NCBI GenBank assembly: GCA_964016885.1
Contig: OZ024755.1
Location: forward strand, 14,198,001 to 14,262,000
From: Eledone cirrhosa
Taxonomy: Eukaryota
Direction: 5' to 3'
Length of the DNA stretch: 64,000 bases
Both the position numbers and the translations under genes were made by a program. Below, piece after piece: positions 15,467 to 64,000 of this stretch. How positions within the stretch are numbered: the stretch's first letter is position 1; each line of letters starts with the position of its first letter. The notes below the pieces were generated by a model. The model did not search any database and was not told the origin of the DNA. It was given only the letters and a program-made list of their open reading frames with translations.

Positions 15467-15812
15467 GGAGGCACATGGCTTAGTGGTTAGAGCATTGGGC
15501 TTGCAATCGAAAGGTTGTGAGTTCAATTCTCAGACTGGGTGATGTGTTGTTTCCTTGAGCAAGACACTTTATTTCACATTGCTCCAGTTTACTCAGCTGT
15601 AGAAATGAGATGATAGGGACTGGGGTCCCTATCATTCCACTGTAAAGTGGTCGTGGAGGTGCCACGGCAAAAAAGCACCCAGCACTCACTGTAAATGAGG
15701 TTGGTGTTAGGAAGGGCATCCAGCTGTAGAAATCAAGCCAGAATCAGTTTCCGTCCCACCCTTGCAAGCAGGGAAAAAGCGGACGTAAAATGAAATGATG
15801 ATGATGATGATG
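15467..15812 (+). mobile_element. tRNA-derived SINE with an RTE-type 3' tail (family 1)
   Basis: A box TGGCTTAGTGG, B box GAGTTCAATTC, body CCTTGAGCAAGACACTT, then the RTE 3'UTR and (GAT)n. Other copies at 44484, ~11740, ~59850 and ~63170. Confidence 0.85.
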
Positions 15813-37590: not shown

Positions 37591-40038
37591 CGATCTCCCT
37601 ACTGATGACCGAATGTTGAAGTTGAGGTGTGCATATCTTCTCCCTCATATATATATATATATATATTTTTTTTTCTGATTACTCTTTTGCTGTGAATTGT
37701 TCATCTTTTGATACTTTATGTAAATAATTACAAAGTCTACCACCCAAATCTAGAAAAAACAAACAGAATAGTGAAGGATTGATAAAAATAAATCTAACAT
37801 TCAGGTTTGCTCAAGTTAGCAGTAAAAGTAATTGGGGATAAGTTAAGTAATATGAAATAAAATAAAAGTGGAAATCAATTGGACAACAAGTTTTATAGAA
37901 ATCACTATTAAAAAGTAAATGATTAAGATTTGAAAAGAAAAGGAGAAAAAAGACATGTATTCGTAACAACAGCGGTAAAGTAATATATCTCTTTGATCGA
38001 TTGTAATGACTTAGACAAATGTGACTTTATAACAGCAGTAATACAGATTAAATAATATATCAACTACGGCAATACAGATATGTGTTGTGTTCATAACATA
38101 GCGTTATCATTAAATTTCATTTAATGTGTAAGGAAACAGATGATAAAGAATCAATGAAATTGTTATCACCATAGCAACAGTACAAAACTGTCGTATATGT
38201 AAATGAAAAACAAGATACGTTATGTTTAATAATGTTAAAACATAATTTGTTGTAAATGAGAAAAAGGGAGTGATGTAGGAAAACATATTAAGGATAACAG
38301 GTTCAAGTTCTTCTCCAAATAAATGCAGCATAACCACAGTTTAGACCCCCCCCCCCCCCCTACGAATTGGTACCCGCACCACTTTCTTAATAATGTATCA
38401 TATTTACAGGCCTATTGGATGCCCCCCCCCCCGCGCAAAAACAAAACAACATAAAAATTTTCCCTGCGTGCAATACACCAATATCACCGACGGGAGGTTG
38501 AACATGGGGTGAGGACAGTCATGGTTTTAAGAAATTTAGTTTGTTACAATTAGTATTACTAATCAAAGGTGGTGGAAGCATTTCTGAATTGGAGGAGGCG
38601 ACGGGGCGTGGGGGCAAATTTGGTCAATTTAGTTGTGGTGATTAGTTTAGCTCTCTGCACTCTAAAATGGTCAGAAAATACAATTTAAGTCCAAGCAGGT
38701 CTTATTAGATTTACAGCTTTCAATAATTATAAAGTGATTATATTAAAATAACCTATAAAATCTGTCTCTGAATACACATACTAGCAATTGACAAATAGTG
38801 TGGAGAAAAAGTTACATGTCAAAAACATTTACTAGTAAAGGTTAACATATTACACTGTTATTATCAAACAGCAACCAAGATATAAAAAAACTACGATATG
38901 CGATAAACACATGTACATAAATAGATGTGTGTTTTAATAGTTTGGGGAAAAATATATAATTATTGGGGGAGGGGGTATGCTCCACCACTGGACCCACGAG
39001 GGTTGGGGGGGGGGGGCACTGGACCCCCAGTGCCACCGCCCCATACACATCATATATATATATTTATATACACAAACAGAACGAGGAGAGAGAGAGAGTG
39101 TTGTACTTCTATACATCTATTTATTATATACATAAAGGTATATATTCTGGTGTGCACATGTCAACCAATCGAACACGATCCACTGGATGTGTAACACAAG
39201 TAAAATGAACGACAAACCTAGAATGAATTGAGAGAGAAAAACTACCCATTAGAATAGAAATGCGTGTGTGCAGATATTTTCATTAAAATAATCAAGGGGA
39301 GGTAACCAGCATTGCATGTATGGGTGTGTTTATGGTGTGTGACAGTAAGTACGCGCGTGCGTGTTGGTGTTTTCTGGCAATCGCCCCAGGCAGACGAAAA
39401 CTATTCTCTGTTCACTAAATCCATTGAAAGAGTTTTGGTCTATCTCGATCTTCAGGATATCTGAGTGACAAGTTACTAACCATACAGCCACATTAAAATA
39501 TATATAGGGTTTTAATAAATATATATAAATTGATATTGATATTTTTTAAACACGTTTTAATATATTGTAATTCTTACAAAATAAAATTTATATATATTAT
39601 ATATCATATATACATATAATATATATATATATATAATATATATATATAATATATATGTATAATATATATATATAATATATATGTATAATATATATGTATA
39701 ATATATATATATAATATATATATATAATATATATGTATAAAATATATGTATAATATATATGTATAATATATATGTATAATATATATGTATAATATATATG
39801 TATAATATATATGTATAATATATATATATAATATATATGTATAATATATATATATAATATATATGTATAATATATATGTATAATATATATGTATAATATA
39901 TATATATATAATATATAACCAAAGTTTAATATGGTTCATTGATTACTCAATGAATATAGTTTTACAATAGATTAAAAGCACTCTACAAGAAAGTTTTCTG
40001 GAGTTATTAATGAAACATTCACATAATCAAAATATATG

Positions 40039-40100
40039 TTTTATTACATATATTTTGAAGGTACTGTGCTGTTTTTTCAGTACTTCCTCGTCAGATAAAT
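40039..40100 (-). ncRNA. Hammerhead motif with mutated core (GAAA to AAAA), probably inactive
   Basis: Inverted partner of 40219-40280. CTGACGA reads 40094 to 40088, but the catalytic G12 is A (position 40056, a CpG-type change). Confidence 0.75.
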
Positions 40101-40218
40101 ACATGAATTGATGTATGACATACCTCAACGGTCTTGAAAGTTCAATTCCAGTATTGGCAGTCAATACTGGAATTGAACTTTCAAGACCGTTGAGGTATGT
40201 CATACATCAATTCATGTA

Positions 40219-40280
40219 TTTTATCTGAGGAGGAAGTACTGAAAAAACAGCACAGTACCTTCGAAATATATGTAATAAAA
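40219..40280 (+). ncRNA. Minimal type I hammerhead ribozyme, intact core
   Basis: Stem I TTTTAT/ATAAAA. CTGAGGA core at 40225-40231. Stem II GGAAGTACTG/CAGTACCTTC closed by G-C, one mismatch. GAAA at 40263-40266. Two-bp stem III with ATAT loop. GUA cleavage triplet at 40272-40274. Confidence 0.85.
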
Positions 40281-40687
40281 CATATATTTTGATTATGTGA
40301 ATGTCTTCATTTATCATTATTCTGAATAATATATAATATATATGTATAATATATATGTATAATATATATGTATAATATATATATATATAATATATATATA
40401 TAATATATATATAATATATATATATAATATATGTATAAAATATATGTATAATATATATGTATAATATATATGTATAATATATATATAATATATGTATAAT
40501 ATATATGTATAATATATATGTATAATATATATGTATAATATATATATATAATATATATATATAATATATATATATAATATATATGTGTAATATATATATA
40601 TAAATATATATATAAATATATATATAAAAAATATATATATAATATACGATATTAACAAATGGAAACTATATTTATAAAACCATATTT

Positions 40688-40750
40688 ATTTCATTATACA
40701 TATTTCAAGGACACCAAGTTAAATTATGGTGTGCTTTCATCAGATAAAAT
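40688..40750 (-). ncRNA. Minimal type I hammerhead ribozyme, intact core, opposite polarity
   Basis: Reverse complement of 40836-40898 (TCATCAG at 40737-40743). Confidence 0.83.
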
Positions 40751-40835
40751 ATAATATAGAGCAGTTTTATAAATAAATATTGACATACCCTTAAAGAATG
40801 CAACCATTACTGTTGGAAGCTCCCAGATAGTCTAT

Positions 40836-40898
40836 ATTTTATCTGATGAAAGCACACCATAATTTAACTTGGTGTCCTTGAAATATGTATAATGAAAT
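40836..40898 (+). ncRNA. Minimal type I hammerhead ribozyme, intact core
   Basis: Stem I ATTTTAT/ATGAAAT. CTGATGA at 40843-40849. Stem II AAGCACACCA/TGGTGTCCTT, one mismatch. GAAA at 40880-40883. Two-bp stem III with ATGT loop. AUA triplet at 40889-40891. Confidence 0.83.
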
Positions 40899-41475
40899 AA
40901 ATATGGTTTTATAAATATAGTTTCCATTTGTTAATATCGCATTTTTACTCCAATTATTTGTTGAGTGCTTTATATCAGTTATAAAAATATTTGCTTGTTG
41001 TATCCCAACAATTTAAATAGAACTTTTACATATATATAATATATAAATATATATATATATAATATATATATATATAATATATTTAAATATATAATATATA
41101 TATAATATATATATACAATATATATATAATATATATATACAATATATATATATTATATATACAATATATATATAATATATATATACAATATATATATATT
41201 ATATATACAATATATATATATTATATATACAATATATATATATATTATATATATAATATATATATACAATATATATATAATATATATATACAATATATAT
41301 ATATTATATATACAATATATATATATATTATATATACAATATATATATATATATTATATATACAATATATATATATTATATATATATAACATATATATAT
41401 ATTATATATATATAATATATATATAATATATATATAATATATATATATTATATAATATATATAATATATATATAT

Positions 41476-41761: not shown

Positions 41762-42825
41762 CATCCTGATCACCGTTTTGTGAACACGCTCACCAACAAG
41801 ACCTGGCAACTCTGTGAACACAACCAACAGTTCACCTTGAAATGGGATATACTTTCCAGCGCAAGTGCATATCGGAGTGGATTGAAGTAATGTAGGTTAT
41901 GTAACCTTGAACTCTTTTACATCTTAAAATCCAAAAATAAATTACTAAATGATAGAATCGAACGATCATTATAGTGCAACCACAAACTCAAAGCTAAATT
42001 CTTTCACTATAAAATAACTTAACATTCGAACCCGTAACTATAACATTACTTTCTAGCTAACCATTTTCTCTTCCCCCACACTACAAGACAATACTCTGCT
42101 TATCACTATAAATGGAAACTTAATGCAATTCGTAGATTACTACTATGAACCCAATGTTCACCCACCCCATAGCTTTCGTCTGTCCCCTCTCTATCTCTCC
42201 CTCTCTATCCATTCCACTCTCTCTCTCGCCCTAGGCCTACCTCCCTCTCTCTCCACATCTATGAACCTGCCCTCTGGGGCAATAAATAATTCCAACCTTG
42301 ACTATCAACACATCGCTTAAGGTGGTCGCTTTAAGAGTAACCAGTATAATAAAACCCCTACCACAACATTTTGATTAAGATATCTACAAACCACTCTCTC
42401 CCATTTCTCCAATCCCTACATATCTTTCTCTCTCTCTTCCTCTCCCCTTCTTTTCTCTCTTCCTTTTCTACTCTATCTTCCCCAATAACCTCACTTAAGG
42501 GTATTTACATTGTACATTTTAACCATTCTGCTCTGATGATACAGTGGTCACAGCATTTGATAATTGAGTTTTGCAAATAGTTATAAATTTGCACATAGCA
42601 TAACTAGGCTGTATAACCACCGTGGAAACATTTGTAAGCACACAGAATAAATTGCCTTTTTATGATGTCTACCTGTTATTATTCATTCTTTATCTACACT
42701 CCGGAATACAGAAGGATCAGGAACTAAGTTTCTTCAACAATTCTTCCATAACTCGTTGAGTAACCTCTCACCGTACGTCAACTCTATCCAGTGTAGTAAT
42801 TAACCATTACTGCATCTAGGATAAT

Positions 42826-42863: not shown

Positions 42864-43260
42864 GATGAAATATATGGAGAATAGAAATGGGTGTGTAGTT
42901 CCTATTTAAGGTAACTTAAAATGCAGTGGGAATACGAAGAAAGCAAGAACAGGGGGAGGGGAGTTTTCCTCATCAGTTGTCTATTGGGGAACTCGGATAT
43001 TTCTACGCTTTAAAGACAATATACCTCGCCCCAGGGCGTCAATAACTGGATAAGTTATTGGGAAAACGGAAGGAGGGTTACTGTTTTCTCTTTGCTTTCC
43101 TTCCCTCCTTCTTTCGTTTTCCCAATAACTTATCCAGTTATTGACGCCCTGGGGCGAGGTATATTGTCTTTAAAGCATAGAAATATCCGAGACCCCCAGT
43201 AGACAACTGATGAGGAAAACTATCCCCCCCCCCCCTTCTTGCTTTCTTCGTATTCCCACT
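42862..43260. mobile_element. Foldback element C (arms ~145 bp)
   Basis: Inverted repeat 42925-43068 / ~43114-43260 with several mismatches, a one-sided tail and (TA)n flanks. Confidence 0.65.
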
Positions 43261-45242: not shown

Positions 45243-46941
45243 TATATATTTATGTATGTATGTATATATAAATTATTGTCTTATTTACAAAAATATTTTT
45301 TCTAATATCGTGTTTAATACTTCATATTGTGTCGTCTGGTTTCCCTCCATTTAATCAACTAACTACCTTTCATTTACTTACTGTCTCTCTCACTATCTTT
45401 CTTTCTTTCCCCTCTCAAACAGCCATTTCCTTCTCTCTCTTCTCACACAGCCTTATCCCCGTTTTCTCTCTATTTCACATCCTTCTCCCTCTCTCATCTT
45501 ACTTCTTATTCACTTAAAATCTCTCTCTATCTGTCTGTCTGTTTCTTTCTATGCAGCTCTTCTGTATTTCCCTGCTTTTCTCTCCCTCTCTGTCTTTACA
45601 TCTGACCCCTCCTACCACAACATTATCTCCTTTCTCCCTCTCACCAACCAAACATAAACACTGTCACCTCTTCTCTCTCCTGGAATAAAATTGCGGGTGT
45701 GCAAATTCAGATGAATTTTACAGTCCAGGGGGAAGTAATTCTGTAAGCAGACCCCCTCCTGCCACCATACTATCTTCTTTCTGTCTCTCTCACCAAACAC
45801 TCTCACCTCACCTCCGAAATAAATATGTAAACAAACGGAAAGACACCAAGTCCCTACGTGGGCGCTCTACCAGGTAAAAATATCTCGAACAAAATAAATA
45901 AATTAATAAAAGCCGACAATAAAACATCAATGTATTCGCCATAATTACATTCACAACTTTATAATAAAATTTTGATAACGAAAATAAAGTAAATGTAAAC
46001 TGAAAAGTTAAACATCGTGATGTTCCGGTAAAAGTATTCGTGTTGTGTTGGCAGACGATGTGTGTGTGTATATATATATATATAAATATACCTGTAAACA
46101 TATGTATATAAATTATTGTCAAATTTACATAAATATATATTTTTAATATCGTGTTTAACACTTCATTTTGTGTCGTCTGGTTTCCCTTCGTTTAATCACT
46201 ACATAACGCTCAACTCACTCCCCTTCATTTGCTTACTGTCTTACTCTTTCTTTCGTCTTTTCACATATAACACAGCCTCTCCTTTTGCCAGTCCGTCTCT
46301 TTCTCTTTATTCTTCGTCTCTTTCTCTCTGTCGCTGTTTCCCTCCTATAATCACTTTTTCTCTTTCTTTTTGTTTCCCCCTCTCTTACTCTGCACTTTCT
46401 ACTTCCCTCTCCTTCTCTCTCTCTGCTTTTCTCTCCGTTTCACACCCTCTCTTTCTCTTAATTTACATCTGACCTCCTCCTACTATCACTTTTCTCACCA
46501 ACCAAATATAAACACTGTTACCTCACCTCTTCTCTTCTCCGTTCTCTCTCCTGGAATAAAATTGCGGGTGTGCAAATTCAGATGAATTTTAAAGTCAAGG
46601 GGGAAGTAATTCTGTAAGCAGACCCCCTCCTGCCACTATACTATCTTCTTTCTGTCTCTCTCACCAAACACTCTCACCTCACCTCCGAAGTAAATATGTA
46701 AACAAACGGAAAGACACCAAGTCCCTATGTGGGCGCTCTACCAGGTAAAGATATCTCGAACAACATAAATTAATTAATAAAAGCCGACAATAAAACATCA
46801 ATGTATTCGGCATAATTACATTCACACCTTTATAATAAAATTTTGATAACGAAAATAAAGTAAATGTAAACTGAAAAGTTAAACATCGTGATGTTCCGGT
46901 AAAAGTATTCGTGTTGTGTTGGCAGACGATGTGTGTGTGCG

Positions 46942-46973
<32 letters not shown>

Positions 46974-48491
46974 TACCTGTAAACATATGTATATAAATTA
47001 TTGTCAAATTTACATAAATATATATTTTTAATATCGTGTTTAATACTACATTTTGTGTCGTCTGGTTTCCCTTCGTTTAATCACTACATAACTCTCAACT
47101 GACTCCCCTTCATTTGTTACTGTCTCACTCTTTCTTTCGTCTTTTCACCTCTAACACAGCCTCTCCTTTTGCCAGTCCCTCTCTTTCTCTTTATTCTTCG
47201 TCTCTTTCTCTCTGTCGCTGTTTCCCTCCTATAATCACTTTTTCTCTTTCTTTTTGTTTCCCCCACTCACTTACTGTGCACTTTCTACTTCCCTCTCCTT
47301 CTCTCTCTCTGCGGCTCCTTTGTATTTCTCTGCTTTTCTCTCCGTTTCACACCCTCTCTTTCTCTGTCTTTACATGTGACCTCCTCCTACCACCACAATA
47401 TCTCCTTTCTCACCTTTTCACCAACCAAACATTAAACACTGTTACCTCACCACTTCTCTTCTCCGTTCTCTCTCCTGGCATAAAATTGCGGGTGTGCAAA
47501 TTCAGATGAATTTTAAAGTCAAGGGGGAAGTAATTCTGTAAGCAGACCCCCTCCTGCCACCATACTATCTTCTTTCTGTTTCTCTCACCAAACACTCCCA
47601 CCTCACCTCCAAAGTAAATATGTAAACAAACGGAAAGACACCAAGTCCTTATGTGGGCGCTCTACCAGGTAAAAATATCTCGAACAAAATAAATTAATTA
47701 ATAAAAGCCGACAATAAAACATCAATGTATTCGCCATAATTACATTCACACCTTTATAATAAAATTTTGATAACGAAAATAAAGTAAATGTAAACTGAAA
47801 AATTAAACATCGTGATGTTCCGGTAAAAGTATTCATGTTGTGTTGGCAGACGATGTGTGTGTGTATATATATATATATATAAATATACCTGTAAACATAT
47901 GTATATATTTATTTATGTATGTATGTATATAAATTATTGTCAAATTTGCATAAATATATATTTTTAATATCGTGTTTAAAACTTCATTTTGTGTCGTCTG
48001 GTTTCCCTCCATTTAATCACGACATAACTCTCAACTGACTCCCCTTCTCTTATTTACTGTCTTCCCTCTCTCTATCTCTCTTTCTCACCCCTTCTCTTCC
48101 TGGTTCTCTCTCCTGGCATAAAATTGCGGGTGTGCAAATTCAGATGAATTTTAAAGTCAAGGGGGAAGTAATTCTGTAAGCAGACCCCCTCCTGCCACTA
48201 TACTATCTTCTTTCTGTCTCTCTCACTAAACACTCTCACCTCACCTCCGAAGTAAATATGTAAACAAACGGAAAGACACCAAGTCCCTATGTGGGCGCTC
48301 TACCAGGTAAAGATATCTCGAACAACATAAATTAATTAATAAAAGCCGACAATAAAACATCAATGTATTCGGCATAATTACATTCACACCTTTATAATAA
48401 AATTTTGATAACGAAAATAAAGTAAATGTAAACTCAAAAGTTAAACATCGTGATGTTCCGGTAAAAGTATTCGTGTTGTGCTGGCAGACGA

Positions 48492-48527
<36 letters not shown>

Positions 48528-50047
48528 AATATACCTGTAAACATATGTATATAAATTATTGTCAAATTTACATAAATATATATTTTTAATATCGTGTTTA
48601 ATACTACATTTTGTGTCGTCTGGTTTCCCTTCGTTTAATCACTACATAACTCTCAACTGACTCCCCTTCATTTGTTACTGTCTCACTCTTTCTTTCGTCT
48701 TTTCACCTCTAACACAGCCTCTCCTTTTGCCAGTCCCTCTCTTTCTCTTTATTCTTCGTCTCTTTCTCTCTGTCGCTGTTTCCCTCCTATAATCACTTTT
48801 TCTCTTTCTTTTTGTTTCCCCCACTCACTTACTGTGCACTTTCTACTTCCCTCTCCTTCTCTCTCTCTGCGGCTCCTTTGTATTTCTCTGCTTTTCTCTC
48901 CGTTTCACACCCTCTCTTTCTCTGTCTTTACATGTGACCTCCTCCTACCACCACAATATCTCCTTTCTCACCTTTTCACCAACCAAACATTAAACACTGT
49001 TACCTCACCTCTTCTCTTCTCCGTTCTCTCTCCTGGCATAAAATTGCGGGTGTGCAAATTCAGATGAATTTTAAAGTCAAGGGGGAAGTAATTCTGTAAG
49101 CAGACCCCCTCCTGCCACCATACTATCTTCTTTCTGTTTCTCTCACCAAACACTCTCACCTCACCTCCGAAGTAAATATGTAAACAAACGGAAAGACACC
49201 AAGTCCTTATGTGGGCGCTCTACCAGGTAAAAATATCTCGAACAAAATAAATTAATTAATAAAAGCCGACAATAAAACATCAATGTATTCGCCATAATTA
49301 CATTCACACCTTTATAATAAAATGTTGATAACGAAAATAAAGTAAATGTAAACTGAAAAGTTAAACATCGTGATGTTCCGGTAAAAGTATTCGTGTTGTG
49401 TTGGCAGACGATGTGTGTGTGTGTATATATATATATAAATATACCTGTAAACATATGTATATATTTATTTATGTATGTATGTATATAAATTATTGTCAAA
49501 TTTGCATAAATATATATTTTTAATATCGTGTTTAATACTTCATTTTGTGTCGTCTGGTTTCCCTCCATTTAATCACGACATAACTCTCAACTGACTCCCC
49601 TTCTCTTATTTACTGTCTTCCCTCTCTCTATCTCTCTTTCTCACCCCTTCTCTTCCTGGTTCTCTCTCCTGGCATAAAATTGCGGGTGTGCAAATTCAGA
49701 TGAATTTTAAAGTCAAGGGGGAAGTAATTCTGTAAGCAGACCCCCTCCTGCCACCATACTATCTTCTTTCTGTTTCTCTCACCAAACACTCTCACCTCAC
49801 CTCCGAAGTAAATATGTAAACAAACGGAAAGACACCAAGTCCTTATGTGGGCGCTCTACCAGGTAAAAATATCTCGAACAAAATAAATTAATTAATAAAA
49901 GCCGACAATAAAACATCAATGTATTCGCCATAATTACATTCACACCTTTATAATAAAATTTTGATAACGAAAATAAAGTAAATGTAAACTGAAAAGTTAA
50001 ACATCGTGATGTTCCGGTAAAAGTATTCGTGTTGTGTTGGCAGACGA

Positions 50048-50085
<38 letters not shown>

Positions 50086-51606
50086 AATATACCTGTAAAC
50101 ATATGTATATAAATTATTGTCAAATTTACATAAATATATATTTTTAATATCGTGTTTAATACTACATTTTGTGTCGTCTGGTTTCCCTTCGTTTAATCAC
50201 TACATAACTCTCAACTCACTCCCCTTCATTTGTTACTGTCTCACTCTTTCTTTCGTCTTTTCACCTCTAACACAGCCTCTCCTTTTGCCAGTCCCTCTCT
50301 TTCTCTTTATTCTTCGTCTCTTTCTCTCTGTCGCTGTTTCCCTCCTATAATCACTTTTTCTCTTTCTTTTTGTTTCCCCCACTCACTTACTGTGCACTTT
50401 CTACTTCCCTCTCCTTCTCTCTCTCTGCGGCTCCTTTGTATTTCTCTGCTTTTCTCTCCGTTTCACACCCTCTCTTTCTCTGTCTTTACATGTGACCTCC
50501 TCCTACCACCACAATATCTCCTTTCTCACCTTTTCACCAACCAAACATTAAACACTGTTACCTCACCTCTTCTCTTCTCCGTTCTCTTCTCCTGGCATAA
50601 AATTGCGGGTGTGCAAATTCAGATGAATTTTAAAGTCAAGGGGGAAGTAATTCTGTAAGCAGACCCCCTCCTGCCACCATACTATCTTCTTTCTGTTTCT
50701 CTCACCAAACACTCTCACCTCACCTCCGAAGTAAATATGTAAACAAACGGAAAGACACCAAGTCCTTATGTGGGCGCTCTACCAGGTAAAAATATCTCGA
50801 ACAAAATAAATTAATTAATAAAAGCCGACAATAAAACATCAATGTATTCGCCATAATTACATTCACACCTTTATAATAAAATGTTGATAACGAAAATAAA
50901 GTAAATGTAAACTGAAAAGTTAAACATCGTGATGTTCCGGTAAAAGTATTCGTGTTGTGTTGGCAGACGATGTGTGTGTGTGTATATATATATATAAATA
51001 TACCTGTAAACATATGTATATATTTATTTATGTATGTATGTATATAAATTATTGTCAAATTTGCATAAATATATATTTTTAATATCGTGTTTAATACTTC
51101 ATTTTGTGTCGTCTGGTTTCCCTCCATTTAATCACGACATAACTCTCAACTGACTACCCTTCTCTTATTTACTGTCTTCCCTCTCTCTATCTCTCTTTCT
51201 CACCCCTTCTCTTCCTGGTTCTCTCTCCTGGCATAAAATTGCGGGTGTGCAAATTCAGATGAATTTTAAAGTCAAGGGGGAAGTAATTCTGTAAGCAGAC
51301 CCCCTCCTGCCACCATACTATCTTCTTTCTGTTTCTCTCACCAAACACTCTCACCTCACCTCCGAAGTAAATATGTAAACAAACGGAAAGACACCAAGTC
51401 CTTATGTGGGCGCTCTACCAGGTAAAAATATCTCGAACAAAATAAATTAATTAATAAAAGCCGACAATAAAACATCAATGTATTCGCCATAATTACATTC
51501 ACACCTTTATAATAAAATGTTGATAACGAAAATAAAGTAAATGTAAACTGAAAAGTTAAACATCGTGATGTTCCGGTAAAAGTATTCGTGTTGTGTTGGC
51601 AGACGA

Positions 51607-51644
<38 letters not shown>

Positions 51645-53165
51645 AATATACCTGTAAACATATGTATATAAATTATTGTCAAATTTACATAAATATATAT
51701 TTTTAATATCGTGTTTAATACTACATTTTGTGTCGTCTGGTTTCCCTTCGTTTAATCACTACATAACTCTCAACTCACTCCCCTTCATTTGTTACTGTCT
51801 CACTCTTTCTTTCGTCTTTTCACCTCTAACACAGCCTCTCCTTTTGCCAGTCCCTCTCTTTCTCTTTATTCTTCGTCTCTTTCTCTCTGTCGCTGTTTCC
51901 CTCCTATAATCACTTTTTCTCTTTCTTTTTGTTTCCCCCACTCACTTACTGTGCACTTTCTACTTCCCTCTCCTTCTCTCTCTCTGCGGCTCCTTTGTAT
52001 TTCTCTGCTTTTCTCTCCGTTTCACACCCTCTCTTTCTCTGTCTTTACATGTGACCTCCTCCTACCACCACAATATCTCCTTTCTCACCTTTTCACCAAC
52101 CAAACATTAAACACTGTTACCTCACCTCTTCTCTTCTCCGTTCTCTTCTCCTGGCATAAAATTGCGGGTGTGCAAATTCAGATGAATTTTAAAGTCAAGG
52201 GGGAAGTAATTCTGTAAGCAGACCCCCTCCTGCCACCATACTATCTTCTTTCTGTTTCTCTCACCAAACACTCTCACCTCACCTCCGAAGTAAATATGTA
52301 AACAAACGGAAAGACACCAAGTCCTTATGTGGGCGCTCTACCAGGTAAAAATATCTCGAACAAAATAAATTAATTAATAAAAGCCGACAATAAAACATCA
52401 ATGTATTCGCCATAATTACATTCACACCTTTATAATAAAATGTTGATAACGAAAATAAAGTAAATGTAAACTGAAAAGTTAAACATCGTGATGTTCCGGT
52501 AAAAGTATTCGTGTTGTGTTGGCAGACGATGTGTGTGTGTGTATATATATATATAAATATACCTGTAAACATATGTATATATTTATTTATGTATGTATGT
52601 ATATAAATTATTGTCAAATTTGCATAAATATATATTTTTAATATCGTGTTTAATACTTCATTTTGTGTCGTCTGGTTTCCCTCCATTTAATCACGACATA
52701 ACTCTCAACTGACTCCCCTTCTCTTATTTACTGTCTTCCCTCTCTCTATCTCTCTTTCTCACCCCTTCTCTTCCTGGTTCTCTCTCCTGGCATAAAATTG
52801 CGGGTGTGCAAATTCAGATGAATTTTAAAGTCAAGGGGGAAGTAATTCTGTAAGCAGACCCCCTCCTGCCACCATACTATCTTCTTTCTGTTTCTCTCAC
52901 CAAACACTCTCACCTCACCTCCGAAGTAAATATGTAAACAAACGGAAAGACACCAAGTCCTTATGTGGGCGCTCTACCAGGTAAAAATATCTCGAACAAA
53001 ATAAATTAATTAATAAAAGCCGACAATAAAACATCAATGTATTCGCCATAATTACATTCACACCTTTATAATAAAATTTTGATAACGAAAATAAAGTAAA
53101 TGTAAACTGAAAAGTTAAACATCGTGATGTTCCGGTAAAAGTATTCGTGTTGTGTTGGCAGACGA

Positions 53166-53203
<38 letters not shown>

Positions 53204-56200
53204 AATATACCTGTAAACATATGTATATAAATTATTGTCAAATTTACATAAATATATATTTTTAATATCGTGTTTAATACTACATTTTGTGTCGTCTGGT
53301 TTCCCTTCGTTTAATCACTACATAACTCTCAACTCACTCCCCTTCATTTGTTACTGTCTCACTCTTTCTTTCGTCTTTTCACCTCTAACACAGCCTCTCC
53401 TTTTGCCAGTCCCTCTCTTTCTCTTTATTCTTCGTCTCTTTCTCTCTGTCGCTGTTTCCCTCCTATAATCACTTTTTCTCTTTCTTTTTGTTTCCCCCAC
53501 TCACTTACTGTGCACTTTCTACTTCCCTCTCCTTCTCTCTCTCTGCGGCTCCTTTGTATTTCTCTCCGTTTCACACCCTCTCTTTCTCTGTCTTTACATG
53601 TGACCTCCTCCTACCACCACAATATCTCCTTTCTCACCTTTTCACCAACCAAACATTAAACACTGTTACCTCACCTCTTCTCTTCTCCGTTCTCTCTCCT
53701 GGCATAAAATTGCGGGTGTGCAAATTCAGATGAATTTTAAAGTCAAGGGGGAAGTAATTCTGTAAGCAGACCCCCTCCTGCCACCATACTATCTTCTTTC
53801 TGTTTCTCTCACCAAACACTCTCACCTCCCCTCCGAAGTAAATATATAAACAAACGGAAAGACACCAAGTCCCTATGTGGGCGCTCTACCAGGTAAAAAT
53901 ATCTCGAACAAAATAAATTAATTAATAAAAGCCGACAATAAAACATCAATGTATTCGCCATAATTACATTCACACCTTTATAATAAAATGTTGATAACGA
54001 AAATAAAGTAAATGTAAACTGAAAAGTTAAACATCGTGATGTTCCGGTAAAAGTATTCGTGTTGTGTTGGCAGACGATGTGTGTGTGTGTATATATATAT
54101 ATAAATATACCTGTAAACATATGTATATAGTTATTTATGTATGTATGTATATAAATTATTGTCAAATTTGCATAAATATATATTTTTAATATCGTGTTTA
54201 ATACTTCATTTTGTGTCGTCTGGTTTCCCTCCATTTAATCACGACATAACTCTCAACTGACTCCCCTTCTCTTATTTACTGTCTTCCCTCTCTCTATCTT
54301 TCTTTCTCACCCCTTCTCTTCCTCGTTCTCTCTCCTGGCATAAAATTGCGGGTGTGCAAATTCAAGATGAATTTTAAAGTCAAGGGGGAAGTAATTCTGT
54401 AAGCAGACCCCCTCCTGCCACCATACTATCTTCTTTCTGTTTCTCTCACCAAACACTCTCACCTCACCTCCGAAGTAAATATGTAAACAAACTGTCTTCC
54501 CTCTCTCTATCTTTCTTTCTCACCCCTTCTCTTCCCCGTTCTCTCTCCTGGCATAAAATTGCGGGTGTGCAAATTCAGATGAATTTTACAGTCAAGGGGG
54601 AAGTAATTCTGTAAGCATACCTCCTCCTACTACCATACTATCTTCTTTCTGTCTCTCTCACCAACCAAACGTAAATACTCTCACCTCACCTCTTTCCCTA
54701 GAATGACAAGTCCCTACGTGGGTGCTCTACCAGGTAACAATAGCACGAACAAAATAAATAAATCAATAAAACATCAATGTATTCGTCATAATTACTTTCA
54801 TAATTTTATGATAAAACTTTGATATGGAAAATAACGAAATAAATGTAAAATGAAACCTAAATTTTGTGAAATTCCGGTAAAAATATTCGTGTTGTATTGG
54901 CAACGATAGGTGTGTGTGTGTAAATATATATATATACATACCTGTAAACATGTATATATTTATATATGCATGTATGGATATAAATGATTGTCTTATTTAC
55001 AGAAATATTTTTCTAATATCGTGTTTAATACTTCATATTGTGTCGTCCGGTTTCCTTCCATTTAACCACTACATAACTCTTAACTGACTCCCCTTCTCTT
55101 ACTTACTGTCTTACCCTCTCTCCATCTTTCTTTCTCCTCTAACCTAGCATCTCCTCTCTCTCTCTCTCTTTGCCAGCCCCTTCTCTCACACAGCCTTTTC
55201 TCCCTCTCTCTGGCGCTGTTTCCCTCCTATAGTCTTTCTTTTTTGTCTTTCTCTCCCAAATCCTTCTTTCTCTTTTTGACCCTCTTATTCTCTTTCTCTC
55301 TCGGTAGCAGCTCCTCTGTATTTCTCTGCCTTTCTCTCTCTTTCACTCCCCACTCTCTGTCTTTACATCTGACCTCCTCCTATCACCACCCATCTCCTTT
55401 CTCTCTTTCACCTCTTTTTTTCTCCGTTCTCTCTCCTGGAATAAAATTGCGTGTGTGCAAGCATAGATGAATTTTACAGTCTAGGGGGAAGTAATTCTGT
55501 AAGCATACCCCCTCCTACTACCATACTATTTTCTTTCTGTCTCTCTCACCAACCAAACAAACACTCTCACCTCTCCTCTTCTCCGAAATAAATATGTAAA
55601 CAAACAGAACGACACCAAGTCTCTACGTGGGCGCTCCACCAGGTAAAAATAGCTGGAACAAAATAAATAAATTAGTAAAACCTGACAATAAAACATCAAC
55701 GTATTCGCCTTAATTACATTCACAATAAAACATTGATAAGGAAAATTAACAAAGTAAAGGAAAAATGAAAGCCTAAACTTCGCAAAATTCCGGTAAAAGC
55801 ATTCGTGCTGTGTTGGCAGACCATATGCGTGTGTGTGTATATAAATATACCTGTAAACATGTATATAATTTATTGTCTTATTTACATAAATATTTTTTTC
55901 TAAAAATCGTGTTTAATTCTTCATATTGTGTTGTCTGGTTTCCTTCCATTTAGTCACCACTTCACTCTCAAATGACTCCCCTTCATTTAGTTACTGTCTC
56001 TCCCTATCAATCTTTCCCCTCTAACACAACCTTTCCTTTCTCTCTCTCTTTTTGCCAGTCCCTTCTCTCACAGCTTTTTCTCCGTCTCTCTCTAATTTCC
56101 CTTTCTTTTTTGTCGCTTTCTCATAGTCACTTTTCCCTTTCTTTTTGTTTCTCCCTCTCTTTTACTCTGCACTTCTACTCCCCCCTCTCTCTCTCTCTCT

Positions 56201-56525
56201 GCAGCTCCTCTTTATTTCTATGCTTTTCTCTCCCTTTCACACACTCTCTCTCTCTGTCTTTACATCAGACCTCCTACCATTACACAATCTCCTTTCTCTC
56301 ACTAACCAATCATAAACACTGTCACCTCTCCTCTTCCCTGTTTTCCCTCCTGGAATAAAATTGCGGGTGTGCAAAATCAGATGAATTTTACAGTCCAGGG
56401 GGAAGTAATTCTGTAAGCATACCTCCTCCTACCACCATACTAATTTCTTTCTGTCTCTCTCACCAACCAAACGTAAACACTCTCACCTCAACTCTTCCCC
56501 ATTCTCCCATGCGGGTGTGCAAAAT
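45243..56525 (+). repeat. Complex tandem array, forward block: ~15 related subunits with a 1558-1559-bp higher-order unit (636 + 923 bp)
   Basis: Core ATTGCGGGTGTGCAAATTCAGATG recurs at about 45690, 46561, 47485, 48122, 49043, 49679, 50602, 51238, 52161, 52797, 53709, 54345, 54558, 55446 and 56360. Near-identical ORFs in the track recur at 47114, 48672, 50230, 51789 and 53348. Confidence 0.95.
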
Positions 56526-56539
56526 CAATTCACTTTTAC

Positions 56540-59500
56540 TATTTATATATACACACATACACATGTTACTATCGTATGCCACCAAAACACGAATACTTTT
56601 ACTGGAATTTCACGAAGTTTAGGTTTTTACTTTACATTTACTTCGTAATTTTCCTTTTCGAAGTTTTATTATAAAGTTGTGAATGTAATCATGTTTTATT
56701 GTCAGGTTTTATTAATTTATTTATGTTAATCGAGATATTTTTACCTTGTAGAGCGCCAACGTTGGGACTTGGTGTCTTTCCGTTTGTTTACATATTTATT
56801 TCGGAGAAGAGGGGGACGTGAGAGTGTTTGTTTGGTTGGTGAGAGAGACAGAAAGAAGATAGTATGGTGGTAGGAGGGGGTATGCTTACAGAATTACTTC
56901 CCCTTGGACTGTAAAATTGTCTGAGTTTTCACACCCGCAATTTTATTCCAGGAGCGAGAAGAGGTGAGAGTGTTTTTGTTTGGTTGGTGAGTGACACAAA
57001 GAAGATAGTGTGGTGGTAGGAGACAAAGTGACAGAGGGAAGCAGCGACAGAGATAAAGAGTCAGAAAAAGGAAAGGAAAGAGACAGAGAAGGACGTGGGA
57101 GGGGGCTGGCAAAAGGAGAGTGTCTGTTAGAGGGGAAAAAGATAGAGAAAGAGTAAGACAGTAAGTAAATGAAAAGGAGTATTGAAAGTTATATCGTGAT
57201 TATATAGTGATTAAATGGAAGGAAACCAGACGACACAATATGAAGTATTAAACACGATATTAGAAAAAATATTCATTTAAATAAGACAATAATTTATATA
57301 CATACATGCATACATAAATATATACATATTTACAGGTATGTTTATATATATATTCACACACGCGCATATCGTTTGCCAACACATCACGAATTACTTTTAC
57401 CAGAATTTCACGAAGTTTAGGTTTTTACTTAACATTCATTTCGTAGTTTTATTATAAAGTTTTATCGTCGGATTTTTTCGAGATATTTTTACCTGGTAGA
57501 GCGCCAATGTTGGGACATGGTGTCTTTCCGTTTGTTTACATATTTAATTCGGAGAAGAGGGGAGGTGAGAGGTTTGTTTGGTGAGACAGAAAGAAAATAG
57601 TATGGTGGTAGGAGGGGGTATGCTTACAGAATTACTTCCCCCTGGACTGTAAAATTGATCTGAATTTGCACACCCGCAATTTTATTCCAGAAGAGAGAAC
57701 GGAGAAGAGATGATAGTGTTTATGTTTGGTTGGTGAAAGAGAGAAAGGAGATCGTGTGGTGGTAGGAGGAGGTCAGATGTAAAGACAGAGAGAGGGAGAG
57801 AAATGCAGAGAAATACAAATGAGCTACAGAGAGACATACCGAAAATAAGAGGGTCAAAAAGAAAAAGTAGGATTTGGGAATGAGAGGGAAGTAGAAAGTG
57901 CAGAGTAAGAGAGAGGGGAAACAAAAAGAAAGAGTAAAAGTTACTATAGGAAGGAAACAGCGCCAGAGAGAGAGAGACGAAGAAAAGATTGTGTGAGAGA
58001 AGGGGCTGGTATAGAGAGAGTGAGAGAGAAACAGTAAGTAAATGAAGGGGAGTCAGTTGAAAGTTATGTTGTGATTAAATGGAAGAAAACCAGACGACAA
58101 TATGAAGTATTAAAAACGATATTGGAAATATATTTTTGTAAATAAGGTAATAATTTCTATACATATGTTTACAGGTATATTTATATATACACACACACGC
58201 ATATAACTGTCGTCTGCCAACACAACACGAATACTTTTGCCGGAATTTCACGAAGTTTAGGTTTTCTCTTTACATTTACTTCGTTATTTTCCTTATCAAA
58301 ATTTTATTATAAAGTTGTGAATGTAATTAAGGCGAATACATTGATGTTTTATTGTCGGGTTTTATTGATTTATTTATTTTGTTCGAGATATTTTTACCTG
58401 ATAGAGCGCCCACGTAGGGACATGTTGTCATTCTGTTTGTTTACATATTTATTTCGCCCCTGACTGTAAAAATGATCTGGTTTTGCACACCCGCAATGAG
58501 AGAAAGGAGAAGAGGTGAGGTGAGAGTGTTTACGTTTGGTTGGTGAGAGAGACAGAAAGAAGATAGTATGGTGGTAGGAGGGGGTATGCTTACAGAATTA
58601 CTTCCCCTTGGACTGTAAAATTGATCTGAATTTGCACACCCGCAATTTTATTCCAGAAGAGAGAACGGAGAAGAGATGATAGTGTTTATGTTTGGTTGGT
58701 GAAAGAGAGAAAGGAGATCGTGTGGTGGTAGGAGGAGGTCAGATGTAAAGACAGAGAGAGGGAGAGAAATGCAGAGAAATACAAATGAGCTGCAGAGAGA
58801 CATACCGAAAATAAGAGGGTCAAAAAGAAAAAGTAGGATTTGGGAATGAGAGGGAAGTAGAAAGTGCAGAGTAAGAGAGAGAGGGGAAACAAAAAGAAAG
58901 AGTAAAAGTTACTATAGGAAGGAAACAGCGCCAGAGAGAGAGAGACGAAGAAAAGATTGTGTGAGAGAAGGGGCTGGTATAGAGAGAGTGAGAGAGAAAC
59001 AGTAAGTAAATGAAGGGGAGTCAGTTGAAAGTTATGTTGTGATTAAATGGAAGAAAACCAGACGACAATATGAAGTATTAAAAACGATATTGGAAATATA
59101 TTTTTGTAAATAAGGTAATAATTTCTATACATATGTTTACAGGTATATTTATATATACACACACACGCATATAACTGTCGTCTGCCAACACAACACGAAT
59201 ACTTTTGCCGGAATTTCACGAAGTTTAGGTTTTCTCTTTACATTTACTTCGTTATTTTCCTTATCAAAATTTTATTATAAAGTTGTGAATGTAATTAAGG
59301 CGAATACATTGATGTTTTATTGTCTCGTTTTATTGATTTATTTATTTTGTTCGAGATATTTTTACCTGATAGAGCGCCCACGTAGGGACCTGTTGTCATT
59401 CTGTTTGTTTACATATTTATTTCGCCCCTGACTGTAAAAGTGATCTGGTTTTGCACACCCGCAATGAGAGAAAGGAGAAGAGGTGAGGTGAGAGTGTTTA

Positions 59501-59850
59501 CGTTTGGTTGGTGAGAGAGACAGAAAGAAGATAGTATGGTGGTAGGAGGGGGTATGCTTACAGAATTACTTCCCCTTGGACTGTAAAATTGATCTGAGTT
59601 TGCACACCCGCAATTTTATTCCAGGAGAGAGAACGGAGAAGAGAAAAAGTGCGGTAACAGTGTTTATGTTTGGTTGGTGAGGAAGAGAGAAAGGAGATAG
59701 TGTGGTGGTAGAAGGGGTCAGATGTAAAGACAGATAGGGAGAGAAATACATAGGAGGTAAGGCTGAGAGAAGGAAAGAGAATAAGAGCGTCAAAAGGAGA
59801 GGGAAGTAGAATGTGCAGAGTAAGAGAGAGGGAAAGAAAAAAGAAAGTGA
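56540..59850 (-). repeat. Same tandem family, inverted block with a 968-bp duplication
   Basis: Reverse-complement core (CACACCCGCAAT) at about 56930, 57670, 58487, 58635, 59455 and 59605. Segment ~57590-58560 is repeated 968 bp later. Confidence 0.92.
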
Positions 59851-60439
59851 CCGGGTGATGCATTGAGTCCATGAGCAAGACACTTTATTTCATGTTGCTA
59901 CAGTTTACTCAGCTGTAGAAATGTCAGTGGTGCCCAGCTGTATTGGGCATTGACTTTCCCTTTCCATTGGACAACATTGGTAGCGTGGAGATTGGCATAC
60001 GTGGGCAACTGCTGGTCTTCCACAAACACATCTTGCCCAGGCTTGTGCCTCGGAGGGAAACTTTTTTAGGTGCAAAATCATAGTTATTCATGACCGAAGG
60101 TCGCCTACAGTAAATGAAAATTATTCTCACCAATTTTATTTTGTACTTGTTTCGGTAGTACATATACTATATTAATACTATTGTTACCATATTTCTAATG
60201 AAAAATACTGCCTATAATTCGGAAAATAATCAAGAATTTTGAGAGATTTAATAATATAACTAATCTATTCATTATTAAGGTAATGTTTGGAACATAGCTT
60301 AACAAATGGTCTTACATAAAATTATGATGGAAGATTTATAGATGAATATAAACATTTTAAAATAGAGAGTTTGTATGCAGAACCAGGGGTGGTTTGGTAT
60401 CAAATAAGTTAAGGTTGTGGATTTGCAATACTTATGAGT

Positions 60440-61273: not shown

Positions 61274-62892
61274 GTTTAACGTCCATCTTCCACGCTTGCA
61301 TGGGTTTGGATGGGAGTTTTCCCACTTGAGGCAAGATTGGTTGTCCTGCTCGTATAGGACTGTCTGGCGGGTTTTCTATGGCTGGATGCCCTTCCTAACA
61401 CCAACCACGTTTACAGTGTGGACTGGGATGTTTTTACCGTGTTACCTACACGGCCACATTACAGCGTGGACTGTGTGTTTTTTTGTCGTGACACCTACAC
61501 GACCTCATTTGTTTCGGACTGGATGTTGTGGTACCAACATAACTTCACATTTAAGGGGGTGGTGTGGATGGGGTGGCGGTAGTGGGACAGGGGTGTATTT
61601 TGTTAGAGGTGCCTACTGACTGTAGGTTTTGCTTTGTACTTAGGCAAGGCGGGTCTTCTTTATTACTGTGTAGCGCCAAAGATCTCGGTCCAATGACATT
61701 GTCTTGGAGAGGTGTAAGTGTGTGAGGTCGGAATTTATCAAGTCGTCCCAGGTTTTTCTGGGTCTGCCTACTCCGTGGCTACCGTCTATTTTTATTGCCC
61801 TGCACTTTTTTATACAGCTGTCGTCTTTCATGCGCATCACGTGACCGTACCAACGTAGTCTTCTCTCGAGTAAACAACATCTGATCCCTCTTATTCCTAA
61901 TTTCTCCCTTAGTTCGTTTATGCTTTGCCGTTCATGTATATTACTATTACACACCCAGCAGAGCATGCAAGCTTCGTTTCTCTCCAGTCTGTGTATATCA
62001 TCTGCACACAATGCCCAGGTCTCACTGCCATGTAGCATTGCTGTTCGTATGCAGGCATCATACAGCCTGCCTTTCATTTTTAGAGAGAACCCTTTAGCGG
62101 CCAATAGTGGTATAAGCTCTCTGAACTATTTCCATCCCGTTCTGACTCTAGCTACTGTACTTTCAGAGCACCCTCCCCCACTGCTGATTTTGTCAACCAG
62201 GTAATGGAAGCTGTCCACTATTTCTATAGAACCATCTGTGCAATGGAATGAGCTAGTATTCTGTAGGCACTTGCTGCTACTTATTGCCCCAGAGCACCGG
62301 CCACATATAAAATCTATATTCTTAGTTAGCTTACCTGTGATCCCACTACATCTTTTATGCACCCATACTTTGCATTTGGGACATAAAATGGAGTTTCTGC
62401 CTACTCCTTTCCTAGACACTGAGCATGGCCATTTCCCAGATGGGACCGGTGCCCTATTTTCCTTCCTACAAACTAGGACTTTAGTCTTAGACAAGTTAAC
62501 TTTAAGGCCTTTTGATTCTAGGCCATGCTTCTATGTTTGGAATTTCTTCTCTAGTTCAGCCATTGATTCAGCTATGAGCGTTAGATCATCTGCATATAGG
62601 AGTTCCCATGGGCAGCCGGTCTTGAACTCCTCTGTTATAGCCTGAAGGGCAATAATAAATAGTAGGGGGCTAAGGACTGAGCCCTGATGAACACCAACTT
62701 TTGCGCTAAACTCTTCACTATATTCGTTGTTAATTCTAACCTTGCTGACTGTTTCTTTATACATGGCTTGTATAGCTCTCACAAGCCATTCATCAACACC
62801 TAGTTTTCTAAGGGCCCACCAGATAATCGAGCAGGGTACTCTGTCAAAGGCTTTCTCCAAGTCAACAAAAGCTAAGTATAGGGGTTTACTTT
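61242..62892 (-). mobile_element. RTE-clade LINE, 5'-truncated and disrupted (reverse transcriptase, C-terminus, 3'UTR and (GAT)n tail)
   Basis: ORF pieces with FVDLEKAFDRV, GVHQGSVLSPLLF, LLYADDL, a PHD-like insert (WPCS...ILCPKCKVWVHKRCSG) and RRLRWYGHVMRM...GRPRKTW. Broken by stops. (CAT)n at 61242-61272. Confidence 0.93.
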
Positions 62893-62952
62893 TAATATAT
62901 ATATTATTCAGAATATTAATAAATGAAGACATTCACATAATCAAAATATGTG

Positions 62953-63014
62953 TTTTATTATATATATTTTGAAGGTACTGTGCTGTTTTTTCAGTACTTC
63001 CTCGTCAGATAAAA
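62953..63014 (-). ncRNA. Hammerhead motif of the same family as 40039-40100, core mutated (GAAA to AAAA)
   Basis: TCGTCAG at 63002-63008 with the same stem II sequence. G12A at 62970. Confidence 0.75.
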
Positions 63015-64000
63015 TACATGAATTGGTGTATGACATACCTCAACGGTCTTGAAAGTTCAATTCCAGTATTGGCAGTTAAAAATAAAATAGTTATATATAG
63101 CCAAGGGCGGTGCCCCAGCATGGCCTCAGCCGGATGGCTGAAACAGGTAAAAGAGTATATATATATGGTGAAAGCTGAGTGGTTGGAGAATTGGATTTGC
63201 AATCACGAGGTTGTGATTTTGATTCCCGGACCAGGCGATGTGTTATGTCCTTGAGATAGACACTTTATTTCATGTTGCTCCTTCTGCCTGGATTTGCAAC
63301 CGATAGATAGTATTAGCAATTGGTTTCCTCGGTCCAATTTGATGAGCTCCAACCCACTCATTACACAAATGAGGTCTGGGATCTTGTTGATTGACTGTCA
63401 AATATATATATATCATCAACATCGTTTAATGTCTATCTTCCACTCTAGCATGGGTTAGACGGATTTGTCCCATTTAGAAGCAAAATGGGTTGGGTGACTG
63501 TGTCTCACTCATATAGGACTGTTTCTGGCTGGTTTTCTATGGTTGGATGCCCTTCTTAGCGCCAAACACATTTACAGTGTCTTTTATACGACCACTTTAT
63601 AGTGTGGGCTGGATGTTTTGTGGTACCACCATAACATACATATACATCATGATAGTGATATATATATATATACATTTGTGCGTACACACATATATTATCA
63701 TCATTACTACCATTTTACGTATATTTTCCATGCTAGCATGGGTTAGACTAGTTGCCCTATTGTGGGCAGTGCTAGGTCAGGTGACCATGTCTTGCTCATG
63801 CAGGACTGATTCTGGCTTGGTTTCTACTGCTGGATGCCCTTCCTAATGCCAACCTCATTTACAGTGAGTACTGGGTGTTTTTTGTTGTGATGCCTCCACG
63901 ACCACTTAACAGTGTAGGCTGGGTACTTTTTGCTGTGTCACCATCACGATCACTTTACAGTGAGGGCTAGGGGCTTCAATGAATGCATTTACTTCGGCCT

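Follow-up and report, generated by a model that had tools for sequence, protein, structure and literature searches.

The window analysed here is a 64,000-nucleotide stretch of the Eledone cirrhosa genome, and its positions 39917-40331 hold an inverted insertion, foldback A, that lies within a TA-type minisatellite. The parts of the locus were as follows:

39585-39916, no strand: left flank, a 13-mer TA-type minisatellite and the likely target.
39917-40331, no strand: whole insertion, two copies of an RNA 5' end (pseudo-LTR) set head to head, with both 3' ends pointing outward into TA-type repeats.
39917-40161, minus strand: tailed arm, from the fixed 5' end of the family (+1 at 40161) to its distal fixed 3' end (End 2).
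39917-40010, minus strand: tail of about 95 nt between End 1 and End 2, which in longer copies (L020, L062, L063) leads on to the ORF start.
40039-40100, minus strand: second hammerhead copy, bearing G12A at the CpG site 40056 and lacking 1 nt in the T-run of stem I.
40148-40170, no strand: inversion junction with a 5-nt loop (40157-40161), a 23-mer found at 51 places in the genome, foldback A included.
40162-40331, plus strand: tail-less arm, from +6 of the family unit to End 1.
40219-40280, plus strand: type I hammerhead with an intact core, predicted to cut after 40274.
40261-40292, plus strand: competing 13-bp hairpin, predicted by a folding model only, that pairs G12-U16.1 with downstream sequence.
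40332-40646, no strand: right flank, a 13-mer array as on the left and in equal orientation.

The reverse complement of 40006-40156 matched 40162-40314 in 148 of the 153 columns of the arm-to-arm alignment, around a central loop of GCAGT (40157-40161), which bore out the near-perfect palindrome with a loop of about 5 nt described in the first-pass annotation. The extent given there, 40009-40330, was corrected to that of the insertion, 39917-40331, whose ends are uncertain by about 3 nt because they merge with the TA repeats. The palindrome halts near 40010 because the minus arm has an internal deletion of about 20 nt, which takes out End 1, and then continues for about 95 nt of further family sequence. 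One 13-mer array, in one orientation, bordered the insertion on both sides, as expected for insertion into the array. The annotation had recognized the palindrome and both hammerheads, and had overlooked the tail and the origin of the structure as a stub of a Penelope-like pseudo-LTR.

On the plus arm, the annotated hammerhead with an ATAT loop was found as described, with CTGAGGA at 40225-40231 and GAAA at 40263-40266. Its stems, said to be full, had been overstated: stem I consisted of six A-U pairs and stem III of two pairs (an A-U and a U-G wobble) closed by the ATAT loop, and stem II was made up of 3 bp, a mismatch and 6 bp. The near-palindromic 8-mer of stem III (40266-40273) carried a G at 40272 that occurred in 0 of the first 100 family matches listed; by predicted folding it still self-paired at -3.2 kcal/mol, equal to the family form. 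On the minus arm, the core CTGACGA (40094-40088) was likewise as annotated, with AAAA in place of GAAA owing to an A that replaces G12 at 40056. The core CUGANGA/GAAA/NUH together with helices I and II was thus present on the plus arm, and the minus arm failed at G12. The word "disabled" is fair for the minus arm, because G12A slows a full-length hammerhead about a million-fold (PMC2553840). An Rfam hammerhead match was absent for either motif, both at the gathering threshold and at E values up to 10, and Rfam microRNA matches were rejected as generic hairpin matches below the cut-off. The plus arm differed from a typical family copy at three positions, and two rare variants, an A in stem II and the G in stem III, were common to both arms of foldback A and occurred in 0 of the first 100 matches listed.

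The locus is one of many dead retrotransposon stubs. In the 3.0 Gb of genome searched, exact matches numbered 965 for a 28-mer from the arm and 1178 for a 32-letter pattern over the hammerhead, with 0 for the reversed control in each case, and the loci examined held solo, inverted and ORF-flanking copies. Family copies had one of two fixed 3' ends, End 1 or End 2, which are separated by about 95 nt and followed by TA repeats; in most of the loci printed, the 3' ends entered TA repeats, in line with the (TA)n insertion by which the Hydra clade is recognized. In L062 and L063, pseudo-LTR copies 92-96% identical to the plus arm of foldback A flanked RT-endonuclease ORFs, the broken remains of which aligned along a 707-aa homologue. 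Family ORF fragments contained DKT, the RT motif GLYRDD, CxCX5C, a YIG endonuclease core, CxxC and CxH. SDKT, in place of DKG, was present in L062, L063, L096 and L097; alignments of L063, L096 and L098, inspected by eye, had the CxCX5C linker and CxxC and CxH around a conserved E and N, with no CCHH. The RWK position read RWR in L062 and L096, RWH in L097 and RWK in three homologues. Family ORFs matched 45 proteins, most of about 700 aa, at E values down to 2e-52. Pfam matches were below the cut-off, with RVT_1 at E=0.0011 in one of five fragments and GIY-YIG at E=0.062 in one of five homologues.

An intact family ORF was not found among the 150 matches scored out of 29674 candidates, all examined copies being broken. 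The longest frame, of 928 aa in L096, was rejected as an intact ORF because it is a chimera with another retroelement: at L096:2070-4856, a Penelope-like RT part was fused in frame to the RT of another non-LTR element across a simple repeat, likely a nested insertion.

The family resembles the Hydra-clade Penelope-like elements (PLEs) of Craig et al. (2021, PMC8557442) in its ORF with a C-terminal endonuclease bearing DKT, CxCX5C, CxxC and CxH, in the canonical hammerhead within its pseudo-LTR and in its (TA)n targets. It differs from them in reading RWR or RWH for RWK, in its N-rich inserts and in its unit length, since the L062 unit, with N-rich and other inserts, spans about 3.8 kb and Hydra-clade units are "generally <3 kb", which is a tendency. 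The hammerhead sequence also differs from the four Hydra rows of File S2 of that paper, and the stem II words of the family were not found in its supplement. We consider it probably an unlisted family of Hydra-type PLE, assigned by its motifs. With high confidence, foldback A can be read as a non-coding stub made of two hammerhead-bearing pseudo-LTR copies of a Hydra-type Penelope-like retrotransposon, placed head to head in a TA-type minisatellite and likely copied by RT from the 5' end of one uncut RNA at both cut DNA ends.

The inverted layout of such stubs is already known from pairs of hammerheads on opposite strands, 100-700 bp apart (PMC4209133), and from the one-sided tails of PMC8557442, where endonuclease-bearing PLEs have an inverted, 5'-truncated copy with a tail at one end only. 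PMC3846280 described palindromic head-to-head junctions and a pseudo-LTR with a TATA box and TCACT initiator. Foldback A is like the inverted pseudo-LTRs of PMC8557442 and PMC3846280 in its head-to-head arrangement, palindromic junction and one-sided tail, with TATA and TCACT in the longer family copies. However, its tail is about 95 nt rather than 30-40 nt, and both of its halves consist of pseudo-LTR only with no ORF, unlike the inverted insertions of those two papers. Non-LTR retrozymes (bioRxiv 10.64898/2026.07.22.740005) are, like foldback A, non-coding, carry a type I hammerhead and derive from PLE pseudo-LTRs, but they form head-to-tail tandem arrays with a hammerhead in each monomer, whereas foldback A is an inverted pair.

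Of 26 loci selected solely through a 3' 28-mer (four duplicate loci dropped), 14 contained head-to-head pairs; in this sample, pairs get two sampling chances. Counted by eye among the first 100 matches listed, there were 15 head-to-head pairs and 0 tail-to-tail pairs. A set of 75 loci, from which five duplicates had been dropped and 49 of which were picked by likeness to the window, held one tail-to-tail neighbour and 41 head-to-head pairs; 38 of these pairs, foldback A among them, combined End 1 with End 2, two combined End 2 with End 2 and one End 1 with End 1, against about 40-50% End 1/End 2 pairs expected from random mixing of ends. Rare variants common to the arms numbered 0.61 per pair versus 0.03 between loci, the arms of foldback A sharing their two. 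Likewise, the arms of a pair agreed at 95 of 110 polymorphic sites, compared with 1352 of 2289 between loci. The arms of a pair thus appear to come mostly from one template, with exceptions, as 15 of the 110 sites differed within pairs and some pairs may therefore have had two templates or undergone later conversion.

Longer copies carried a TATA box 32 nt upstream of +1 and a TCACT initiator at +1, which suggested that +1 is the likely transcription start and that the template was likely uncut, in agreement with PMC11167929. The 5' starts of the 38 arms in the 26 unbiased loci were concentrated at one position, falling between -17 and +5 in 15 cases, further upstream in 8 and at scattered positions in 15. 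The cut site showed no such concentration in these loci, with one of the 38 arms starting within 3 nt of it. Short extra pieces of the 5' end were present at the joints of L058/L059, L051, L060 and L024, as if synthesis had turned back a few bases and then jumped to +1, and several of these joints had a G just before +1, as from a cap-templated base.

We tentatively propose, as an explanation held somewhat short of an even call, that the stubs are a fossil record of PLE insertion in which an asymmetric enzyme dimer used each of the two start sites once, at the two ends of a double-strand cut and with a single uncut, capped RNA as template, the cDNAs being joined by cross-priming. On the main reading of foldback A given above, transcription by Pol II would start at +1, as the TATA box and TCACT of longer copies suggest, and the endonuclease would cut both strands of the TA repeat. 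One cDNA would begin at End 2 and the other at End 1, both would reach the RNA 5' end, and the cDNA end of one would prime on the other, joining the arms. The hammerhead, as the element's own dimer-type motif, would be passively carried along. Such a two-site asymmetric arrangement would lead to a single tail in nearly all pairs, to shared rare variants and to either arm being the longer at the joint. If it is true, the hammerhead is predicted to stay inactive while the element inserts, perhaps because of the hairpin that lies just downstream. In vitro, both strands are cut and extended by a Poseidon protein, which initiates at two internal sites bounding the tail and for which the hammerhead is dispensable (PMC11167929). 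Poseidon PAc (Frangieh et al. 2024, PMC11167929) is like the family in its two internal starts bounding the tail, uncut RNA template and AT-rich targets, but it belongs to another clade, and its hammerhead overlaps the ORF start where that of the family lies well upstream.

The closest competitor, which we judge unlikely though deserving of weight, is self-priming (PMC3846280): the 3' end of a single cDNA would have snapped back to prime copying of that same cDNA, with the shorter end set by the endonuclease cut. The junction with a 5-nt loop at 51 places does resemble a snap-back, rare variants common to both arms would follow from self-copying, and foldback A taken alone fits, as its tailed arm is complete and its tail-less arm starts from +6. 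Among the clean cases in the 20 loci fetched, however, the tailed arm reached further 5' in five and the tail-less arm in five, so that the same junction occurred equally often with either arm complete. In L023, L034 and L049, moreover, the tailed arm lacked 35-105 nt that were present in the tail-less arm, and the joint was gapless, which is impossible for one self-copying cDNA made from sense RNA. That either arm may reach further 5' favors two cDNAs, one per start site and cut end. The formation of inverted structures by PLEs is an open question named in PMC8557442, for which the stub family offers a usable data set; the strict rule that a tailed arm joins a tail-less one, together with the staggered joints, limits how insertion can proceed and could be tested in the in vitro system of PMC11167929. 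The term "twin priming" was not found in the Penelope literature searched, and the pairing rule may already be stated in print.

It is very improbable that the whole foldback moves as a unit of its own (MITE-like or retrozyme-like) and descends from a single master copy. The exact junction common to 51 places and the recurrence of similar lengths could be taken that way, but the tail occurs on either side of the asymmetric junction, and these two polarities already largely refute a single master. Furthermore, the junction occurred in different subfamily haplotypes, a single haplotype occupying both arms in 12 of the 13 long pairs; other junction types were common; and tandem monomers of the retrozyme type were not seen in the loci examined.

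A 2017 paper reportedly describes cleavage of PLE hammerheads as dimers. Searching the fetched loci with a descriptor revealed four related families of motifs, and 99% of the cells in 11 representative motifs from these families paired. Changes on both sides affected five of the six helix II pairs counted, in motifs that had been picked for pairing; in the helix III palindrome, all 44 cells (four pairs) were standard and two of the four pairs had changed on both sides. Because the motifs are related to one another and had been chosen for helices I and II, the inner three helix III pairs constitute the only free test; they were kept, which supports the dimer form put forward by Cervera and de la Pena (2014, PMC4209133), in whose study activity was absent from monomers and weak in dimers. 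The type I PLE hammerheads of that paper are like those of the family in their long helix II, short helix I, palindromic helix III and proposed action as dimers. The first-pass annotation had regarded stem III as self-complementary and compatible with dimeric activity, and the stem stays so through changes in the other families; it had also raised a lack of stem covariation among genomic copies, and the motif covaries across the four families. On this comparative evidence, the ribozyme motif is real at the family level and dimer cleavage is plausible for the family, a mode for which the concerted changes in stem III palindromes among four families give clean comparative support.

The fourth pair of helix II was an internal mismatch, mostly C-C or C-U, that was kept in all four motif families as neighbouring pairs varied. 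Examples are:

Window 40219-40280: helix II mismatch.
L116:2764-2829: helix II mismatch.
L123:2155-2225: helix II mismatch.
Window 40835-40899: helix II mismatch.

We discarded another helix II register, which places an extra base after A9, because pairing in the CCTCC subfamily and in families B-D is better with the direct register.

For foldback A itself, folding predictions gave a single rod for both read-through transcripts, at about -250 kcal/mol over 415 nt, which supported the annotated rod that buries the ribozyme; read-through RNA would thus likely be a rod unable to cleave. If stubs are read through in introns, the product would be about 150 bp of double-stranded RNA, a substrate for editing or small-RNA pathways. 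The isolated plus arm was predicted to misfold into the competing hairpin over G12-U16.1, which has 13 bp here versus 11 bp in a typical family copy and is lengthened by the stem III G, a relative statement only, given that the folding model ignores tertiary contacts and predicts hardly any helix I even in typical copies. Foldback A lacked the TATA box that longer family copies carry. A transcript starting near the loop, which had been suggested as a requirement for cleavage, is unlikely to help, with no TATA box present and the plus arm predicted to misfold. Foldback A, as a promoterless copy, likely does nothing. A sigma-70 promoter scan (7 hits versus 7.0 by chance) was set aside as inapplicable to an animal genome, and a host exon was not evident among the 23 open frames of at least 130 aa in the window.

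Across the 75 loci, 88 of 107 arms kept the hammerhead core and 19 were broken. In 33 head-to-head pairs, both cores were kept in 25, one was broken in six and both were broken in two; independent decay at the observed rate would give about 10 pairs with one broken core. The contrast of an intact and a disabled hammerhead in opposite polarity, presented earlier as a feature in its own right, was therefore unsupported, such pairs being unenriched, and the one broken hammerhead likely reflects chance decay, not a switch. G12 is the G of a CpG, which among the first 100 pattern matches listed read CG in 89, CA in 3 and TG in 8, some of the TG copies possibly being an older subfamily. The G12A change likely arose after insertion through CpG deamination. 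A solo family A copy on the minus strand at 62887-63077 of the window, running from +1 to End 1 inside the RT frame of another retroelement, also carried two changes of foldback A, G12A and the stem II A variant; both may therefore be older than foldback A or may recur.

A functional RNA switch, with an intact ribozyme concealed in the rod, a deliberately inactivated counterpart on the other strand and dimeric cleavage by a short transcript that starts at the loop, has as slight a probability as the mobile unit. The rod is indeed predicted, the plus core is intact with a stem III 8-mer that self-pairs, and the motif covaries across families. Against these points stand the unenriched one-broken pairs, the CA and TG readings at the G12 CpG, the missing TATA box and the predicted misfolding of the plus arm alone, and foldback A was not distinguished in any way from many other copies.

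The least probable alternative, with next to no weight, is an assembly artefact from a fold-back read chimera: no read or contig examined (four runs, with reads from many family copies) spanned the whole stretch and the flanks are simple repeats, but the arms differ by substitutions, by the deletion of about 20 nt and by about 95 nt of true family sequence in the tail, the layout recurs and is published, the junction occurs at 51 places, and RAD short reads of three samples cross the centre (reads from the family, not provably from the foldback A locus), all of which upheld the earlier argument from arm differences against a pure artefact.

Foldback B (40646-41030 of the window), from a second, related family, lies in the 13-mer array and has a tail on its right arm only; both of its hammerheads are intact, with CTGATGA at 40843 (plus strand) and 40743 (minus strand). 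The genome search gave 338 candidates for it; in L098, a copy with 82% similarity runs on to the beginning of a Hydra-type ORF. A 3' piece of another Hydra-like endonuclease lies at 41777-42000 (tblastn E=2.5e-7), and a CTGATGA downstream of it, at 42533, was without an obvious hammerhead. A third head-to-head pair (42880-43260), with about 160 nt per arm, lies between TA repeats and has CTGATGA on both arms with the matching GAAA absent, possibly an unusual or decayed core. From 45500 to 60000, the window holds a higher-order tandem array with a core of about 300 nt repeated 11 times, at alternating spacings of 636 and 923 nt and a period of about 1559; the array has a strong GC skew, and inverted copies occur beyond about 57000. 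A weak tRNA match (33 bits) at 15474-15537 is probably the head of a tRNA-derived SINE.
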